From a virus (lineage: Duplodnaviria; Caudoviricetes): a stretch of 64,000 nt of DNA. A model generated the notes under the pieces. It was not told where the DNA came from, did not search any database, and saw only the letters and a list, made by a program, of their open reading frames with translations. Below are positions 2,691 to 33,268 of the stretch, piece by piece (positions within the stretch are counted from its first letter, which is position 1; every line of letters begins with the position of its first letter). The position numbers and the translations under genes are program-made. The DNA lies in IMG/VR virus record IMGVR_UViG_2974692648_000001, positions 1-64,000 of that record; one strand, written 5' to 3'.

Positions 2691-3792
2691 ATACTCTTTT
2701 TTCAAGTTCGGTTCTCATCGCTAAGAAACGTTTTTCCAATAATGGATTTTTTATCTGCTGAGTAGTGAGACGAGTATCTTGTTGTAACCAGCGTTTGACA
2801 TGACTCTGTAAATAACCGTTATTAGTGTTAGTCACACGGTTATAATGAAATAAAACCGTAAGGACTTTCATATACGAGAAATTCCAAACCCAGCGAGATT
2901 TCAAATAAAGTTCGTACTGTCCTGGATTTTTCCATACCACGGGATTATCCAACGGGGTAGGTAATGTATCGAAGACCTCCAGGTCGTAAACTAAAGCATC
3001 CAGATTACGTATAGGTTTACGATTTAAGAGTTCGTCGTATTTCTCTATAGTTCGTTCTAATAAACGCTCTACGGAATTGATAGCGTAAGTAGTGCGAGGC
3101 ACACTTACTAAATCCTTAAACTCTTTACCAGTCACTATGTGTTCATAGAGACTATTGAGTACTACCAGTCGGTTGCCGAGTAACTGGGCGTTCATCAACG
3201 GAAACTTAGGTAACCATAAATGCGGCTTTGGATCAAACCCGTAGGTATTAGCATCTTTGAGGTAACGCCAATAAGCTACAGCTAAGGCACAGAAATCTAT
3301 CCCAATGATAGCAAACTTACCATCTGGGTCGTTAGTCAGTTTATCTTTAACCGGGCGGAAGTCTAGCTCAGTTGAGTCACTGTACACCGGAATAAAGGGA
3401 CACAAGTCCTCGGTGTTTGTAGCGAGGTAATCAGTAAAAGAGAACTGCGGTGGCAAAGATATTAGTAGCTCACGAAAGCCTTGCATATATAGTGCATTTT
3501 GGTGAAGTCGACCTGACCCGTAAACACCTACAGCTTTTGTTGAGCTAGCCCAACGTTCCCTTTTAAGACCAATAACTTGCTCTAATTCTTCGGAAGTCCA
3601 AGACGGGTCTATTTGCATAAACTCAACGAGTTGGACTAATGGATGTTCATTCGGTAAACGGTAACTGGTGTCTAACACCCGTTCCTTAAATTGTTCTTGG
3701 TTGAATCGACACATGCGAATTAAGTTACTTATATTAGTGTAGCTATAAGACGCATTACTCATCGAACTCAATCCCGTGAATAATGTTTGCAT
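2689..3792 (-). CDS. Conserved jumbo-phage protein, probably virion structural (phiKZ gp52-like by position)
   Basis: 367-aa ORF opposite-strand between DNA polymerase and chimallin. Late-type TATG motif upstream. Product inferred from gene order only. Confidence 0.55.
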   Translation of the reverse strand: MQTLFTGLSSMSNASYSYTNISNLIRMCRFNQEQFKERVLDTSYRLPNEHPLVQLVEFMQIDPSWTSEELEQVIGLKRERWASSTKAVGVYGSGRLHQNALYMQGFRELLISLPPQFSFTDYLATNTEDLCPFIPVYSDSTELDFRPVKDKLTNDPDGKFAIIGIDFCALAVAYWRYLKDANTYGFDPKPHLWLPKFPLMNAQLLGNRLVVLNSLYEHIVTGKEFKDLVSVPRTTYAINSVERLLERTIEKYDELLNRKPIRNLDALVYDLEVFDTLPTPLDNPVVWKNPGQYELYLKSRWVWNFSYMKVLTVLFHYNRVTNTNNGYLQSHVKRWLQQDTRLTTQQIKNPLLEKRFLAMRTELEKRV

Positions 3793-4014: not shown

Positions 4015-6081
4015 ATGATCTCTGGTAAAAATGACTGGGATAACGTAGGCGACAATGATCAATCACCTGCAAACCCACAATCGCAAAATCCAACCAATCA
4101 CAAAGCTGCACAACAAGGAGCAGAAAAAATGTCATCAAACAAAAACCAATCTCTACTAGACTTCGCTAACGTTCTTGGTATGAACTCAATGATGGCCGGC
4201 GGTCGTAGCGTTCCTGTTGTGAACGATATCGTTAAGAAGTTGAATGACTTCCGAGAAGAGAAAGATAAGTCATCTATCAACCCTGCACTACAGCAAATCA
4301 TCCCGCAAGAAATCATTTCAATGGACACTAACTTGTCTCCAGTATTGCCGGGTATCATTCTTGCACGTCGTGTAGGTAACACACTGATCATCGCACCAGT
4401 GTTGTTCTCTAACCGTGAAATCGCTATCCAGCTGGAAGAGATTCACACTAACGGCACTATGGGTCAAAACGTACCTAGCAAAGTGCAAATCAAACAAGCA
4501 CCTAACCGTTACATGAGTAAAGAAGTGGTTCGTAACATCATCGAATCAATGAAGCTTCGTTACGCTAATGAAGGTGTGAACGACGTACAACTAATCACGT
4601 CTCGCGTTATCGACCTAGAATCTTACCAAACTCCTGAAAACAAAGAGATTGGTATGGCAGATCTTCTATCTAACGTTATCCTAGAAGAGTGGGAACGTGG
4701 CATGAAGACTACTCTAGCGAAGACTATGGTTAAGACTGGTACGGAACTGAAAACTCCGTTCATCGACAACAAAGGTCAAATCGATAAAAACGCTTACGGT
4801 CCAACTAAGTGTGCGACTGCTCGTATCGAGTCTATCAAAACTCAATCTGGCGCTCCAATCACTATCGACGGTGTACCATCTGGTGCTAACATGTTGGTTC
4901 AGCTACAAACTGCACCAAAAGAAGGTCAACAGTACAACGCAGATGCAGCTCGCGGTATCGTGAATGCTTACTCTAACGTTCTACTAGTTGGTGTTCCTTT
5001 TGCAGTTTACACTGCCCAACTACAAAACCGCCAAGTTCAACCGTTGTTCAACCCAATGATGAACGCCAACGACGCGTACCCTCACGGTTACCACCCACTG
5101 CAAGCAGTTGTAGTAATGGAAACTTCTCGTGCTCAAGCACAGATGGGTAACAACTCTGGTATCGCATCTTGGTTGATGGCGCTATACGCTAACATGACAG
5201 TGAACCACAACCACTTGTTCACTGAACCTCTACGTATGGCTAAGATTGGTGCTCGTGGTAACCTGTCTCACATCGAACGTCGTATCGATGACATGATCGC
5301 AGGCGCTCTACCTAAACGTGACGATAAACTGAAGATCAACGAAGCTCGTCTAAAAGACATGGACTTCACTTCATCTTGGATTCGTCGTAACATCGCTGAG
5401 CGTGCATCGTACGCTATCGACCTAGTAGAGTTTGGTAACGAAGCTGCACTACACAACTTCCTACTAAACCTAAGCGGTAACAACGAAGCTGCGACTGAAA
5501 ACAAACTGGTTATCGTTAAGATGATCGATGCAATCACTGGCGGTGAAGCGACTCGTCGCATTGCAGAGAACAAGCAATCTGGTAAAGGTTGGACTCCAGA
5601 GAAACAAGTTCTATGTCCATCTGCCATCATCAGCCCAGTTGGTACATTCAAGCACAACGGTCACCTACACTCTCTACAAGAAGTAGACGAGATGTTCCTA
5701 AGCCGTCTATGTCCAACTGACACTACCCCAATGGTTCAGTACCTACAAGCGGTATACGGTGACGGTGGTCAAACACCAGAAGCTGTACGTCGCTACCGCA
5801 TGACTACCATGCTTCCTACACTTATCAACGATGATGTAAACATCACTGGTACTTCACGTCGTCACTACGTGTCTCCAGAGTTTGCAGTATTCCTAGGTCA
5901 ATGTATGGATAAACTTGGTAACCTTAATGCATCTGGTACTATGGGTACGTTTGCTTCTAACGTTGCAATCTACGCTCCATCAGTTGAGTTTGCTGTACAA
6001 GCAGCAGCTGGCGCTTCTGGTGCGTACATGACCAACTCTGGTGGCATTGTAGGTAATAGCTCAGGCATTACTTACGCGTAA
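4015..6081 (+). CDS. chmA: Chimallin, major phage nuclear shell protein (phiKZ gp54-like)
   Basis: 688 aa, directly upstream of the nvRNAP beta-prime N-terminal gene as in phiKZ-like phages. Early promoter, strong codon bias, low-complexity N/C tails, own terminator. Inferred from synteny and size, not alignment. Confidence 0.75.
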   Translation: MISGKNDWDNVGDNDQSPANPQSQNPTNHKAAQQGAEKMSSNKNQSLLDFANVLGMNSMMAGGRSVPVVNDIVKKLNDFREEKDKSSINPALQQIIPQEIISMDTNLSPVLPGIILARRVGNTLIIAPVLFSNREIAIQLEEIHTNGTMGQNVPSKVQIKQAPNRYMSKEVVRNIIESMKLRYANEGVNDVQLITSRVIDLESYQTPENKEIGMADLLSNVILEEWERGMKTTLAKTMVKTGTELKTPFIDNKGQIDKNAYGPTKCATARIESIKTQSGAPITIDGVPSGANMLVQLQTAPKEGQQYNADAARGIVNAYSNVLLVGVPFAVYTAQLQNRQVQPLFNPMMNANDAYPHGYHPLQAVVVMETSRAQAQMGNNSGIASWLMALYANMTVNHNHLFTEPLRMAKIGARGNLSHIERRIDDMIAGALPKRDDKLKINEARLKDMDFTSSWIRRNIAERASYAIDLVEFGNEAALHNFLLNLSGNNEAATENKLVIVKMIDAITGGEATRRIAENKQSGKGWTPEKQVLCPSAIISPVGTFKHNGHLHSLQEVDEMFLSRLCPTDTTPMVQYLQAVYGDGGQTPEAVRRYRMTTMLPTLINDDVNITGTSRRHYVSPEFAVFLGQCMDKLGNLNASGTMGTFASNVAIYAPSVEFAVQAAAGASGAYMTNSGGIVGNSSGITYA

Positions 6082-26831: not shown

Positions 26832-26886
26832 TATAACTCCGTACTCCCTAGGGAGTACGGAGTTATAACTGTTCTTGTTTTTTTTT
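26832..26886 (+). terminator. Terminator formed by a perfect 36-bp palindrome
   Basis: tataactccgtactccct|agggagtacggagttata (26832-26867), then a spacer and T9. Confidence 0.8.
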
Positions 26887-26892
26887 CTATCT

Positions 26893-26998: not shown

Positions 26999-28300
26999 TT
27001 ATTCAAAGAGTTCTTGGAGAGTATATGTCTTGACAGACATCGAACTCGTATGCATGCCTTTCATTCTTTGTAGCATGAAACCTGTAGCAATGTCCGAACA
27101 TTCCATTGATAGTGCGTCAGCTGCGTCTGAGAGTGCGTCACCCACACATACCTTACAGTAGTTACCTTCTGGTGTTACACAGGTGTTAGGGGTTCGGAAC
27201 TTAATGTCACGACCAATTAAGTTTTTCTCCGTACCAGTCCAACGTTTCAACGAACCACCTTCTCCTAATATGTAGTAAGAACCTGTCCACATTTTAACCT
27301 GATCTTCGGTAATGTGAACTGACTCATAAACCTTAGACTTACAATCATCTTCAGGAATAGTAATACGGGATGTCAAACGTTGGATGTCCTTAACCGCTGC
27401 ACCACCTTCACCAGTTGCTTTACCGCGGTCATAAGAACCCGCAATCGCTGTGTTGATGTATTGGTGTAGGTGATCCATATCCCAACCATCATCGAGCGAT
27501 TTATGCAAGAATGTCCATTCACCAGTGTTCCAGTCTTGTTCAGCACCGAAAGCAATGAACATACGTTTACGGGCGTTATCAATAAACTTCTTATTGATAA
27601 AGAAGTCTTTAGAATCACCCTTGAGCTGGATCTCCATGTCCTTAGCAACCAGCTGGTCGATAATCCACGCTGCTTTAATCGGGTCATGAATAGCGTCAGG
27701 GTTCTCTTTAAGGAGTTTGGCTTTCAGTTCCAACAGTTCTTTATCAACAGTCAATGCTTGGATAGATGCCGCTTTACAGAAGACGTTGTTTAAACCCATC
27801 AGGTAATTGAACTGCTTAGTCACCTTATGACAATCATCAACACTACACTTACCCGGAGGAACTGTTTCACCTTCTTCAGGGTTATCTACCATCACCTCAC
27901 TAATGATGCGCTTAACGTCACCCGCATTCATTACTTTATTGTGGTAAGGTACAGTATCCTTTAATGCCTCATAAAACACCACACGGTTTACCAACAACAA
28001 CCCCATGGTGGTTTCTAGCTCTCCTTCGACTCTAGGATCAAAGTTAGAGTCTATGGTGATGCGTTCGTCCTTATAACAAAAAGGTGCGCTTAAATCGCCT
28101 TCTACGCGCTCTGTCGTGCCATCGTCTTTATAGAAGTAAAACCCTTCCCCGTCTCGGTAAAGTGCGTACTTGATCTTACTCAGAATACGGGCAGTTTCCT
28201 CGTCATCTGATAACTTCGTAAAGACGCTAAGCAACCATGCTTTTTTCTGATAACAGCGAGATTGAAAACAGAGTTTAAGGTACTCATGCTTCGTAATCAT
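26999..28300 (-). CDS. Virion RNAP beta-prime C-terminal subunit (phiKZ gp80-like)
   Basis: SLDDGW, GSYDRGKATGEGG (bridge helix), DDCKS, RTPNTC..YCKVCVG, MKGMH (trigger loop). Confidence 0.85.
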   Translation of the reverse strand: MITKHEYLKLCFQSRCYQKKAWLLSVFTKLSDDEETARILSKIKYALYRDGEGFYFYKDDGTTERVEGDLSAPFCYKDERITIDSNFDPRVEGELETTMGLLLVNRVVFYEALKDTVPYHNKVMNAGDVKRIISEVMVDNPEEGETVPPGKCSVDDCHKVTKQFNYLMGLNNVFCKAASIQALTVDKELLELKAKLLKENPDAIHDPIKAAWIIDQLVAKDMEIQLKGDSKDFFINKKFIDNARKRMFIAFGAEQDWNTGEWTFLHKSLDDGWDMDHLHQYINTAIAGSYDRGKATGEGGAAVKDIQRLTSRITIPEDDCKSKVYESVHITEDQVKMWTGSYYILGEGGSLKRWTGTEKNLIGRDIKFRTPNTCVTPEGNYCKVCVGDALSDAADALSMECSDIATGFMLQRMKGMHTSSMSVKTYTLQELFE

Positions 28301-29201
28301 CTTTCACTCCTTCGGGTAACATGATTTCTTCCGCTAAACGTTCCGCTCGGTAAAGTAATGTGACTTCCTCTACGTTTTCTTCGATCACTTGTTTGATCTG
28401 GTCCCAGAACTTATCATTAGGAGTTTCACTGATCAAAGAGAAACCAAACAGTTCTTTAATGTAATGTTCTGGAGAAGTCTTCATAGCCGCGTCTAATTCC
28501 AAAGCATAGAAGCCCAGGAGTGTTAAGAACCCCATTCCTAGTTGACCGTTGTTACGAACGTGTTTAGCTGCGACAGTCCCTTCTAGGAACGCTACGTTGG
28601 TCTTAATGCGTAGCTTAACGAATTCAGGAACATCCGGAACACCATCTGACACAATTAAACTAATGCGTAAGGTTTCCATCAAATACTCACTGCATTCTAA
28701 AATTAAGTATTCCAGGTCCTCAATAATAGGGGTAGTCGGTTCGTAATCGTAAAGCTTGCGGAAGACTTCAATGAAACGATCTTTAGGAGAAAGATCTCGT
28801 TGTTCCAAAATCTCACTTAAGCTTTGCAAATCTTCGTAACCGTTAAGTAAGTAAATCACATCTGTAATTTGATACAGCGTGTCCAACTTATTAGCTTCAA
28901 CGTATTCTAAATCGATCGTGATGCCAAACTTAACCAGTTGTTCAATTATATTGTTTAACAGGAGCTCAAGTATGACTGCTTTTTGTTCAACGACTGCTGA
29001 GTCGTCATCACTCAAAATGTTGGCAATGGTTGAGACTAATACGTTCTCTTCATCAGCCAAAACCAGCAGAGTGTAGACTCGTTGAATAAGCTCCGCGTTT
29101 TCTGGGGTAATCGCTTTAGTGAAATTGATCCATGGTTCACCCAGATCTTTAGTTAGTAAATCCACGTTGGTTAAGTCCACCGCAGGGATAGTATCGTTCA
29201 T
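28284..29201 (-). CDS. Hypothetical acidic protein
   Basis: 305 aa, GAGG RBS, overlaps the virion RNAP gene start. Confidence 0.7.
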   Translation of the reverse strand: MNDTIPAVDLTNVDLLTKDLGEPWINFTKAITPENAELIQRVYTLLVLADEENVLVSTIANILSDDDSAVVEQKAVILELLLNNIIEQLVKFGITIDLEYVEANKLDTLYQITDVIYLLNGYEDLQSLSEILEQRDLSPKDRFIEVFRKLYDYEPTTPIIEDLEYLILECSEYLMETLRISLIVSDGVPDVPEFVKLRIKTNVAFLEGTVAAKHVRNNGQLGMGFLTLLGFYALELDAAMKTSPEHYIKELFGFSLISETPNDKFWDQIKQVIEENVEEVTLLYRAERLAEEIMLPEGVKDDYEA

Positions 29202-29230
29202 AATAACCTCTTAATCAGAAGGAACATAAA

Positions 29231-29995
29231 ATGCCAAAAATTAGTAAGCATAAGCAGGCAAAACGTAAACAACGTCAACGTAATGTGCAGGCTTCTAAAT
29301 CTAAACAACGCTTACAAGAAGCAAGAGAAAAACGTCAGTCAAAGGACCGACAACTTCTACAACAGCTCAATGACACTCTTGGTGGCGAACACGCCATGAG
29401 TGATGAAATGAAGAAAGAAGCAAAAGAAAAATTCTGGAAAGTGTTCAGTACATTACCTCCTCAGTTACAAAAAGACGCTATGGAGTCTTTTGAAAAAGAA
29501 GGCGGTACAGTAACACCAATGGACTTGGATGGTATGACTAACCTGCTTTGTGAAGGTCTGAACCACTACATCCGTCCACACGCTCTCGTTGCGACCCTAC
29601 ACTCTTTGGTAGATCAAGAGAAACTTGTATTAACTGAAGAGCTTACTGCTAAGATGGATGCGCTAGACGCAGCCGTACTAAAATACATTGGTAACGCGAC
29701 GGCTATACTGGAAGCTTTCGATACCATCCGCGGGCTCGACGAAGAGTTACAACACCAAGCTATTCTGGATAACGAAGTCCTGGGCGAACTGTTAATCCCG
29801 ACTCTGTTAAGTTATCAAGAAGACAGCGAAGAGATCATCTCTCCGTTGATTGAGTTGTCAGAACCACACACAGAACTTATCAACGACGATATCAAGTTCG
29901 TCGGTGAAATCCTAGGTAAAACTAACCTCTATGAAGTTTCTCGTGAAATCCACTTGGAGCGTGTAGAAGAACTGGTGAAAGTAAAAGGTGAATAA
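29231..29995 (+). CDS. Hypothetical protein with K/R/Q-rich N-terminus
   Basis: 254 aa, AAGGA RBS. Confidence 0.7.
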   Translation: MPKISKHKQAKRKQRQRNVQASKSKQRLQEAREKRQSKDRQLLQQLNDTLGGEHAMSDEMKKEAKEKFWKVFSTLPPQLQKDAMESFEKEGGTVTPMDLDGMTNLLCEGLNHYIRPHALVATLHSLVDQEKLVLTEELTAKMDALDAAVLKYIGNATAILEAFDTIRGLDEELQHQAILDNEVLGELLIPTLLSYQEDSEEIISPLIELSEPHTELINDDIKFVGEILGKTNLYEVSREIHLERVEELVKVKGE

Positions 29996-31613
29996 GATGA
30001 CTGAAGAGTCAAAAGAAATTAAACGCCCTTCTTTGCGTGAAAAGCATACAGCAGAGAACACCACTATGAAGGAGTCGGTAAATCCGGCTCTTCCAAAGAC
30101 CGTGGAATTAGAAGAAGGCGACGTTACTTTCAACATTTTGTTGGGTACGAGTAAAGCTAACTTCGAACCTACTATGCGTCTTGCATTATCTTGGGCGCGC
30201 TACCAGTCTGCGTTAACTGAAGGTAAAGCGACTAAAGCTGAAATCACTCGTTATAAGAATCAGTACGAGGAATTAGCCAAGGAACAACACCCTGGTAAAA
30301 CGGAAGAAGAATTAGAAGTGATGATGTCTAACTTCTTAAGTTTCCACCGTAACCTAGTGGAGCTACCTTACTTCCGAAACCCGATGTTGAAAGATCGTCC
30401 GTGGGAGAACCTTTCTATCTTTGCAGATGGTAAAGAGGAAGGTGACATTGTACCACGTTTCCCTGGGGCTAAAAACGAAGCCACAGCGCTAGCTGAACGC
30501 ATGCAACGCTCTTCACAACGCAAAAGTCGTACACCAAATGGTTATGACGTACTCATGCGTGATTCGTTTATCCAAATCCGTTTAGAACCTAGCTCCATTA
30601 TCGAACTAGGTCAGGTGATTGACAAAATCAACAAAGAAATCCACGGTTACGTTTCTAGCTTCAATGGTAACTCCATGACCTTGATTCGTGCTTCGATTTA
30701 TCGTGTGTTCTGGAATTACATCAGTGAGAAAATCACGAGTCATTCCGTGTCGGATGTCGACGACCCACGTGACTTGACCCGCTTAGTAAAACTATCTGAC
30801 ATTCGTTCGCTGTTTGTTGACATGATGGCGGAACTAGCAGAAGATGGTTTACCTATTCAACTCTACTGCAATCAAAATGGTTGTGACTGGGTTGATTACG
30901 TTAAAGCGGATCCTGTCACTATGCTTTGGCATGACAAAACGTTGCTCAGCGACGAGCAAGCCGCGGCACTAGGTAGTCTAAAGAACTTTGCTGTGAAACA
31001 CACTTTTGAAGAAGTGTTGGCTTTACAAGACCAGTCCAAGTTCGTCGAAAAAGATCACATTGATTTCTATGAAGACACACACCGCTTAGAATTCGCCCAG
31101 CCTTCACTGAGTGAGTATTTCTGTGCTTTTGACGTGTTCATGGATTACATCCAACCAACGCTTCGTGAGATCCGTACGGACACCATGAACGATCAAGAGT
31201 ACGAAAAGAAACTAACCGTACTGATTGATACGGTCCGTGGTCTGGAATACATGCACTGGGCTTCGAAACTCACTATCTTCCCTGAAGCAGGTTCAGATGA
31301 AGAACCTGAGGTCTTTACTCGACGTGAAGACCCGGTTGGATTCTTTAATGGGTTATTACCTATCATTGATGAGTCAGACGATGTAACTCGTAAGTTGATT
31401 CATTGGTGTGTAGAACATGGTCCAGAGATGAGTTCCACTGTAGTGGGTATGAGTAACTCTGTGTGTCCTAAGTGTGGTAAAGACACTCATGGTGGATTGA
31501 CGTCACATGGCATCACTCCTATTGACCCATTCATGAGTTTTTTCATCCTGACCCGCCAAACGATTTCCGACCGAGCGGTGAGCCGCGGGATAATCGCACC
31601 AGACACCCTTTAA
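29988..31613 (+). CDS. Putative tail assembly chaperone/baseplate-hub-assembly-like protein (phiKZ gp77-like), non-shifted product
   Basis: CNQNGC and CPKCG Cys pairs, C-terminal PIDPFMSFF lying on a slippery T TTT TTC. True start may be ATG 29997. Confidence 0.55.
   Translation: MNKMTEESKEIKRPSLREKHTAENTTMKESVNPALPKTVELEEGDVTFNILLGTSKANFEPTMRLALSWARYQSALTEGKATKAEITRYKNQYEELAKEQHPGKTEEELEVMMSNFLSFHRNLVELPYFRNPMLKDRPWENLSIFADGKEEGDIVPRFPGAKNEATALAERMQRSSQRKSRTPNGYDVLMRDSFIQIRLEPSSIIELGQVIDKINKEIHGYVSSFNGNSMTLIRASIYRVFWNYISEKITSHSVSDVDDPRDLTRLVKLSDIRSLFVDMMAELAEDGLPIQLYCNQNGCDWVDYVKADPVTMLWHDKTLLSDEQAAALGSLKNFAVKHTFEEVLALQDQSKFVEKDHIDFYEDTHRLEFAQPSLSEYFCAFDVFMDYIQPTLREIRTDTMNDQEYEKKLTVLIDTVRGLEYMHWASKLTIFPEAGSDEEPEVFTRREDPVGFFNGLLPIIDESDDVTRKLIHWCVEHGPEMSSTVVGMSNSVCPKCGKDTHGGLTSHGITPIDPFMSFFILTRQTISDRAVSRGIIAPDTL
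31538..31596 (+). promoter_or_regulatory. Putative programmed -1 ribosomal frameshift signal
   Basis: In-frame X XXY YYZ heptamer T TTT TTC (31538-31544). The -1 frame is open from there to 32062. GC-rich pairing potential downstream. Confidence 0.65.
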
Positions 31614-32062
31614 TACCAGGGGTCTTAACCGACAACTTATATCACCTATACCGTGAACGGATTTCTAACATTGATCCTGATGGCATAGGTGATGTGCAAC
31701 ATCAAACCATAGCACTGATGTTGTACCGTGCAGGCTACGGACAGTTGTCAAAAGTTCCAGAGCCAGGAGACGATATCAAGCTCTATGACGATAGTTATGA
31801 ATTTGAACATCCATGGTCAATTCAAGCTAGAGCGAGAACCTATGCGTTTTACGAGTTAAAGGAAATCTTTGGCGATCTTAATACGTATTTGAACATGTCC
31901 CCTAAAGTTGCTTCAGAGATTGTTAAGGGTATGAGAAAAGGCGCTGAGGAGTTAAACCAACTCAGACAGCGACAAGCCAAAGCTCAACCTAAGTCTGGAG
32001 AACAATACGATTTGGAACAACAATTAGCTGAACTCGGAAGAGTAGATCTATCCAGCGGGTAA
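31544..32062 (+). CDS. Frameshift extension (T-like part) of the 29988 gene; includes track ORF 31694-32062
   Basis: 50 stop-free codons lie between the slippery site and GTG 31694. Predicted fusion is about 691 aa. Confidence 0.6.
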   Translation, partial: HPDPPNDFRPSGEPRDNRTRHPLIPGVLTDNLYHLYRERISNIDPDGIGDVQHQTIALMLYRAGYGQLSKVPEPGDDIKLYDDSYEFEHPWSIQARARTYAFYELKEIFGDLNTYLNMSPKVASEIVKGMRKGAEELNQLRQRQAKAQPKSGEQYDLEQQLAELGRVDLSSG

Positions 32063-32066
32063 TAAG

Positions 32067-32100
32067 AATAACGTCTGTCCTACGGGGCAGGCGTTATTTC
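32067..32100 (+). terminator. Terminator-like hairpin
   Basis: aataacgtctgtcc-TACG-gggcaggcgttatt. Confidence 0.7.
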
Positions 32101-33215: not shown

Positions 33216-33268
33216 TTAGTACCTACCTCCCACTTGGGAGGTAGGTACTAAACTCTCTTTATTTTTTT
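33216..33268. terminator. Bidirectional terminator
   Basis: ttagtacctacctccca/tgggaggtaggtactaa then ctctctttattttttt. Confidence 0.85.

Follow-up and report, generated by a model that had tools for sequence, protein, structure and literature searches.

We analysed a 64,000-nucleotide (nt) stretch of tailed-phage DNA (Duplodnaviria; Caudoviricetes; positions 1 to 64,000 of the IMG/VR record IMGVR_UViG_2974692648_000001), here called the window, with a focus on a locus at which a large gene and the small open reading frame (ORF) behind it quite probably form a single unit expressed through a -1 ribosomal frameshift. The upstream gene (29997-31613, + strand) encodes a protein of 538 amino acids (aa), or 541 aa if read from a GTG at 29988, that is a member of phrog_4585 and a homologue of phiKZ gp77 and SPN3US gp39. 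Judging by the alignments, ATG 29997 and not GTG 29988 is the likely true start, because the corresponding methionine (M4 of the longer form) does not vary in alignments of 110 and of 68 homologues; the stored cluster representative of the protein starts at the same position, and a start at GTG 29988 would give an 8-nt overlap with the upstream ORF (29231-29995). Close to the 3' end of the gene, in the codon series GAC CCA TTC ATG AGT TTT TTC ATC, the triplets AGT TTT TTC (31536-31544; S517, F518 and F519) contain the slippery heptamer T TTT TTC (31538-31544, + strand), the first T of which is a third codon position, giving the phase X XXY YYZ. The -1 frame is closed by a TGA at 31523-31525 (+ strand), 13 nt 5' of the heptamer, and then has 178 open codons before the stop at 32060-32062; among them is the GTG at 31694 with which the downstream ORF (31694-32062; phrog_24181) begins. 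A preliminary description of this DNA had reported the phased heptamer, the TGA and the open -1 frame, and all three were verified in the sequence.

Ribosomes remaining in the 0 frame would reach the stop at 31611-31613, and those slipping at the heptamer would read the -1 extension (31544-32062, + strand), which comprises 172 codons and a stop and contains the downstream ORF. The predicted products are 538 aa in the 0 frame and 688 aa (516 + 172) across the frames from ATG 29997, or 541 and 691 aa from GTG 29988. Between the heptamer and the 0-frame stop, the DNA is dual-coding (31545-31613, + strand): it carries both the 22-aa tail of the 0-frame protein and the first 23 codons of the -1 frame, which begin HPDPP.

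Within the window this combination is singular. Phased X XXY YYZ heptamers number 31 in stop-to-stop ORFs of at least 100 aa, and only the one at 31538-31544 has a long -1 continuation (172 codons, against 41 at the next-best of the 31); the coincidence of heptamer and long -1 frame exceeds chance. The sequence TTTTTTY occurs 17 times in the 64-kb window, approximately 3.5-fold below the 60.6 +/- 10.9 expected from 100 dinucleotide-preserving shuffles, each of which had more occurrences than the window itself, and the genes of the window seem to avoid internal T runs. Several of the TTTTTTY runs that are present sit just 3' of ORF ends (for example, 26878-26887 and 33262-33268).

The arrangement was compared across 67 loci—that of the window, 20 from GenBank phages and 46 from IMG/VR—which represent 54 distinct sequences and fall into 32, 20 and 15 clusters at 70%, 50% and 40% protein identity, respectively. 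The GenBank loci are from phages of Vibrio (2 TSL-2019, phiKT1019, Aphrodite1, pTD1, VP4B and phiKT1028), Klebsiella (Miami and N1M2), Erwinia (RisingSun and AH04), Pseudomonas (EL, OBP, PA7 and phiKZ), Shewanella (FishSpeaker), Edwardsiella (pEt-SU), Aeromonas (PS1), Salmonella (SPN3US) and Burkholderia (FLC8), and from Halocynthia phage JM-2012. A run of six to eight T (T6-T8) lies on the homologous Phe-Phe codons at all 67 loci, 36-84 nt 5' of the 0-frame stop, and the gene pairs conserved in this way include phiKZ gp77/gp76.4 and SPN3US gp39/gp40. A canonical phased heptamer is present at 53 of the 54 distinct loci, in the form T TTT TTC, T TTT TTT or, once, T TTT TTG (L067). At 67/67 loci the -1 frame opens no later than the heptamer and continues through the downstream ORF; its open part after the slip measures 148-185 codons in 43 of 44 distinct extensions (the 44th, L041, ends at the end of its contig), and the frame spans 162-219 codons in the most distant subgroup (L060-L067).

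Homologues without the heptamer, or with stops between it and the second ORF, had been named in the preliminary description as evidence that would speak against a programmed site; none of the 67 loci is of this kind, and the proposal of a -1 site linking the 541-aa ORF to the downstream ORF gains support from the conserved, phased heptamer. In FLC8 (L055), L062 and L065 a pair of cysteines (CPxC) that lies shortly before the site in the upstream protein has been lost, whereas the T run and the -1 ORF are retained, and the putative frameshift is in this respect more conserved than the adjoining Cys motif. On the basis of these genomes, the predicted slippery arrangement is common to the nucleus-forming jumbo phages (Chimalliviridae), phiKZ with its gp77 and gp76.4 included.

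Codon choice at the site runs counter to that of the genes around it. Elsewhere in these ORFs, Phe is encoded by TTC 792 times and by TTT 230 times (3.4:1), yet the first Phe codon of the site is TTT at 46/46 distinct loci, and the base preceding it is T at 45/46. The T before TTT is explained by neither reading frame, because it is a 0-frame third position and lies 5' of any -1 translation. In the 14 codons 5' of the site, entropy is 0.93-1.19 at third positions versus 0.12-0.62 at first and second positions; across the overlap the profile is flat, with third positions at 0.72-0.85, in all three clades tested, as expected for a segment that is coding in two frames. The peptide encoded in the -1 frame is itself constrained: all of 25 sequences share P2 and P4, and in a set of 38, whose overall identity is otherwise 10-25%, conservation at P2, P4 and L23 is 90% or higher. 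Searches using tblastn with this peptide yielded alignments that begin at residues 1-5 in phages of Klebsiella, Stenotrophomonas and Erwinia, always in the -1 frame relative to the match of the upstream protein.

These constraints bear on the reading of the locus as two ordinary genes, in which the downstream ORF would start at an unusual codon or by termination-reinitiation and the T run would merely encode Phe-Phe. Two genes are annotated in all public records, phrog_24181 models the downstream part alone, an ATG approximately 174-197 nt past the T run is common, and T4 gp26 (a smaller protein with a similar C terminus; see below) keeps a Phe-Phe pair without a frameshift. However, neither a start position nor a Shine-Dalgarno (SD) sequence is conserved for the downstream ORF across the loci, and few of its candidate starts have an SD. 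The annotated starts vary in kind and place—a GTG 9 nt past the stop in 2 TSL-2019, an internal ATG in phiKT1019, a TTG in Aphrodite1, and others. In phiKZ and PA7, the first ATG, GTG or TTG of the -1 frame lies 254 nt past the T run; PHIKZ076.4 (L057 4102-4563) and PA7 gp304 (L054 3700-4215) are annotated as 80 aa within a 171-codon open -1 frame that opens before the T run, inside gp77. Transcript data from phiKZ-type RNA runs include a single contig that covers both ORFs, and they place a poly(A)-tailed end approximately 10 nt past the stop of the -1 ORF. A promoter scan of the + strand of the window found none between the two ORFs; it was limited to sigma-70-type promoters, on which these phages do not rely. 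Considering also that the -1 peptide is conserved 5' of the 0-frame stop and up to the heptamer, that the -1 frame is open back to the heptamer at every locus, and that TTT and its preceding T are chosen against the TTC bias, we regard two independently started genes as very unlikely.

A further reading, that the true gene is a continuous ORF of approximately 690 aa that only appears split owing to a homopolymer sequencing or assembly error, or that was recently broken, is effectively refuted. Homopolymer runs are error-prone in some sequencing chemistries, but the same frame arrangement recurs in 54 distinct sequences, which stem from many separate projects and metagenomes, and contigs assembled from RNA runs show the genomic length of the T run. 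In addition, the 0-frame tail is conserved among homologues and is modelled as a confident helix. A fused single-ORF form is absent among the 150 listed of 152 family representatives (50% identity; lengths of 149-663 aa), most of which stop 8-30 aa past the FF pair (a few tails reach 35-50 aa); a search with the extension among longer proteins likewise gave no fused form, although this is weak evidence.

Several observations weigh against frameshifting by the ribosome at this site. No trans-frame protein or frameshifted ribosome has been observed, including in the literature found. The T-richness of the site is partly a protein constraint, because the Phe-Phe pair is conserved in T4 gp26 too, as TTC TTT, without a frameshift. 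One locus (L042) has C TTT TTT, which would allow single-tRNA slippage only, and the +1 frame, usually open for 3-60 codons, reaches 83 codons in SPN3US, 99 in FLC8 and 138 in L065. Two of the scans by which loci were collected used FF-containing peptide patterns and are biased towards Phe-Phe, although they favour neither particular codons nor an open frame. In Escherichia coli, U UUU UUC shifts modestly. Folding analyses gave no sign of an RNA element that would assist the slip: the 60 nt following the heptamer had minimum free energy (MFE) z-scores of -1.55 to +1.34 in 16 phages (+0.82 in the window), with no significant fold, and RNAalifold returned 0 pairs for the largest clade (22 sequences) and, for the Vibrio clade (8 sequences), nothing beyond a trivial hairpin of 5 base pairs over the heptamer. 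Over 100 nt after the heptamer, folding z-scores ranged from -2.28 to +1.17 (16 phages).

The unusually GC-rich segment that had been noted downstream of the heptamer is present, but the pseudoknot for which it was thought suitable did not withstand comparison. A proposed three-helix pseudoknot was rejected, as its positions were paired in 76.9% of cases in the 8 Vibrio-clade sequences versus 76.2% after shuffling, with 0 compensatory changes, and several pairs of its helices are broken in 4-5 of the 8 relatives. Reading of the 8- and 22-sequence alignments revealed no SD-like motif 5' of the heptamer, although a different sort of stimulator may be present. What is conserved beside the site is the nascent peptide G-x-TPIDPxMxFF, together with the doubly coding nucleotides; speculatively, the nascent peptide may contribute to the slip.

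The main rival explanation places the slip in transcription, with the phage RNA polymerase stuttering on T6-T8 and adding one U to some mRNAs, from which the same long protein would be translated. In keeping with this, the conserved element is a homopolymer of variable length (6-8 T), L042 keeps the run without the canonical heptamer, no RNA stimulator of ribosomal slippage was found in the folding analyses above, and these phages use their own unusual multisubunit RNA polymerases, one subunit of which is encoded by a neighbouring gene. However, a polymerase does not need the X XXY YYZ phasing seen at 53/54 distinct loci, and known bacterial transcriptional slippage sites usually consist of at least nine A or T. 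In contigs of phiKZ-type RNA runs (three runs, three studies), the T run carries no extra base—a weak argument, as contigs drop minority variants. Taken together, we consider transcriptional slippage unlikely.

It is quite likely, in our assessment, that the 538-aa gene and the small downstream ORF are one expression unit that yields two products through a -1 frameshift. From the anatomy of the site we infer that most ribosomes would stop at 31611-31613 and release a 0-frame protein ending in a 27-residue C-terminal helix, and that a fraction, depending on the efficiency of the site, would slip back one base on T TTT TTC, with tRNA-Phe re-pairing from UUU/UUC to UUU/UUU; tandem -1 slippage of two tRNA-Phe on U UUU UUY would be the simplest mechanism. 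The slipped ribosomes would exchange the last 22 residues for a Pro-rich, probably flexible linker and a small helical domain, giving a protein of approximately 688 aa. The two isoforms would most likely work in a fixed ratio in the assembly of the baseplate or tail, an arrangement that may be viewed as a functional analogue of the G/GT pair of lambda and not as its relative.

Assignment of the proteins to known families was limited. The upstream protein matches phrog_4585 and phrog_8054 and the extension matches phrog_24181, and the function of all three PHROGs is unassigned. Searches of Pfam, PHROGs and NCBIfam gave no function for either part (no Pfam family above the cutoff and no tail-assembly-chaperone family), and sequence and profile searches of solved structures in the Protein Data Bank (PDB) gave nothing meaningful for either protein. 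Four cysteines and the pair F518-F519 are kept in the family of the upstream protein. The first Cys pair (C294 and C299; 30867-30884, + strand) does not vary in either alignment (110 and 68 homologues); in the second, within the CPKC motif (C493 and C496; 31464-31475, + strand), C493 is invariant and C496 at least 90% conserved. The four residues may form a metal site. An AlphaFold2 model of the main protein, built with 110 homologues, has a predicted local distance difference test score (pLDDT) of 92.5 and a predicted template modelling score (pTM) of 0.91. In this model, residues 514-540 form one C-terminal helix that includes both Phe residues and the whole 0-frame tail, and because the helix spans the two, the frameshift would cut it past F519. 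The extension was modelled with a pLDDT of 60.5: residues 1-84 are Pro-rich and mostly below 50, and a helical domain at approximately 93-170 reaches 70-84. This low-confidence model had no Foldseek match in the PDB, the extension had no family match in these searches, and SLT/lysozyme-like leads for it from the ESM Atlas were set aside as they were below reliability marks.

Structural comparison of the main protein pointed to the baseplate hub. Its model had no Foldseek match in the PDB at E <= 0.001, and a wide search with VIA gave a best Z of 7.9 for a helical hairpin (residues 55-121 only), which is uninformative. Against the predicted structures of BFVD, Foldseek returned jumbo-phage homologues first, followed by proteins of 230-285 aa (E of 9.4e-5 to 6e-3, probability of 0.98-1.00 and TM(target) of 0.41-0.55). 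Those with names are called baseplate hub subunit, "baseplate hub assembly protein, bacteriophage T4-like" and baseplate hub assembly chaperone, and the hub-named matches stand at ranks 20, 23, 25, 27, 28 and 29 (E of 9.4e-5-3.1e-3, probability of 0.99-1.00 and TM(target) of 0.42-0.52). The jumbo-phage protein is similar in predicted fold to T4 gp26 and gp51 (PF12322), a family type that NCBI names 'gp26 family baseplate hub assembly chaperone'. T4 gp26 ends CPECGK...FFELL and has a CxC further upstream, and its CPEC aligns with the CPKC of the window; the order of two Cys pairs, a conserved Pro and a C-terminal CPxCG...FFxL is shared by the two proteins. In a permissive hhalign comparison, gp26 residues 5-209 were collinear with family positions 174-508 (probability of 3.6%, E of 0.012). 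The ESM Atlas gave a weak T4_baseplate lead for the main protein, and two public records name homologues "baseplate protein". In its GenBank record phiKZ gp77 carries no structural mark, and gp79 and gp80 are marked as structural.

The proposed kinship with gp26 and gp51 has its own difficulties, which tell against this part of our interpretation. On the structural side, both partners of the comparison are predictions. Among the faint Pfam matches of the family, PF12322 is the commonest, but only 3/68 members match it, with a best E of 0.2 (T4 gp26 and gp51 themselves score 215.6 and 177.5 bits and, because both match PF12322, are paralogues), and profile-profile comparison with hhalign gave probabilities of 1.9-13%. 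Because these sequence-level tests fail, we regard the main protein as only a probable homologue, in enlarged form, of the T4 gp26/gp51 baseplate hub assembly proteins, judging from predicted structure and motifs.

Long-tailed phages reportedly share a conserved -1 frameshift, exemplified by lambda G/GT and P2 E/E', and the preliminary description had assigned the present locus to this chaperone type. Like those systems, the locus has a phased heptamer as its proposed -1 slip site, placed towards the 3' end of the first ORF, two predicted products with a common N-terminal part, a downstream ORF without its own start and a likely role in tail assembly; T TTT TTG, used by L067, is the P2 E/E' heptamer. 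The assignment itself fails on gene position, size and family. The upstream product is approximately 540 aa here versus approximately 100-150 aa in lambda G/GT, neither a tail-tube nor a tape-measure gene adjoins the gene, neither sequence comparison nor Pfam shows any similarity, the predicted fold matches the gp26/gp51 type, and the shift would replace a conserved 0-frame helix. Both the unusually large size of the upstream product (538-541 aa) and the lack of an adjacent tape-measure gene had been recognized before and were verified. The idea of a tail-assembly role survives in part, on the predicted gp26/gp51-type fold and the CPxCG...FFxL ending, but for a family other than G/GT, because the model resembles the T4 gp26/gp51 baseplate hub assembly proteins.

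T4 gene 26 is, like the jumbo-phage gene, annotated with two products (26 and a nested 26'), but the second arises by internal initiation, unlike the proposed slip. T4 gp26 measures 208 aa against approximately 540 aa for the jumbo-phage protein, and the same frameshift device is absent from its gene, which has no slippery site in its TTC TTT codons. T4 gene 26 (L058 10800-10860, minus strand) ends ...KEFFELL, and its stop shares bases with the start of gene 25 (TAATG), which places gene 25 in the -1 frame relative to gene 26. Another parallel to the proposed mechanism is E. coli dnaX, in which a -1 slip on a homopolymeric heptamer likewise gives two isoforms (tau and gamma) in a set ratio. 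However, the dnaX heptamer is A AAA AAG, flanked by an SD-like element on the 5' side and a stem-loop on the 3' side, and the shift there yields the shorter product, whereas at the jumbo-phage locus no stimulator was found and the shifted product would be the longer one.

The DNA of the region is 87% identical to that of Vibrio phage 2 TSL-2019 and 73-74% identical to that of phiKT1019, Aphrodite1, USC-1 and 5 TSL-2019, phages that belong to Aphroditevirus (Gorgonvirinae, Chimalliviridae); by this relatedness, the earlier label of a nucleus-forming jumbo phage is fair. The neighbouring genes encode a virion RNA polymerase beta subunit, members of phrog_5038, phrog_26494 and phrog_14374, a DNA polymerase and a helicase, with the same synteny in the relatives, and none of the genes adjoining the frameshift gene is a tail-tube or tape-measure gene. 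A syntenic block (26999-29995 in the window, and its counterparts in relatives) extends across Vibrio, Pseudomonas, Erwinia, Aeromonas and Burkholderia phage genera. One strand of the block encodes an RNA polymerase subunit and a virion protein resembling phiKZ gp79; the other carries a gene for a protein of approximately 250 aa, the frameshift gene and a gene for a protein of approximately 180 aa. Directly read from the sequence, a GC-rich inverted repeat followed by a T-rich stretch (32071-32097, + strand) may be a terminator shared by the two ORFs, although a simple terminator scan of the window did not flag it. A GC-rich inverted repeat with T's is also found 3' of the -1 ORF stop in three relatives (L001, ~3671-3700; L002, ~3652-3680; L003, ~4340-4370).

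Neither the mechanism nor the placing of a frameshift in a tail assembly gene is new; the novelty lies in the clade and protein family concerned, in the architecture and in the absence of any obvious stimulator. In the parts of the literature that we saw, with supplementary proteome tables lying outside the search, we found no report of a programmed frameshift in phiKZ-like phages, and the passages seen on Goslar gp77, PCH45 gp77/gp76 and phiPA3 gp77 concern other proteins, those on dnaX being likewise unrelated. A more far-reaching version of our interpretation, which we put forward tentatively and consider on the whole doubtful, is that all nucleus-forming jumbo phages make an unannotated protein of approximately 690 aa through an obligatory, ancient and family-wide -1 frameshift that sets the isoform ratio of a giant gp26/gp51-like hub assembly factor. 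The device would have originated independently of G/GT and would operate without an RNA stimulator, possibly aided by the nascent, invariant TPIDPxMxFF in the exit tunnel or by phage-modified ribosomes.

If the frameshift is real, a core gene is mis-annotated in every Chimalliviridae genome, including those of phiKZ, phiPA3-type phages, 201phi2-1, SPN3US, EL, OBP and RisingSun: a protein of approximately 690 aa would be absent from the annotation, and the small "hypothetical protein" that follows gp77-like genes would not be free-standing. The rule that long-tailed phages place a -1 frameshift in a tail assembly gene would extend to a new clade and family with a different architecture. The locus would also offer a naturally occurring U UUU UUY site with deep conservation and no evident RNA stimulator and, in phages known to bind and modify host ribosomes, a case for studying how such a site is tuned.

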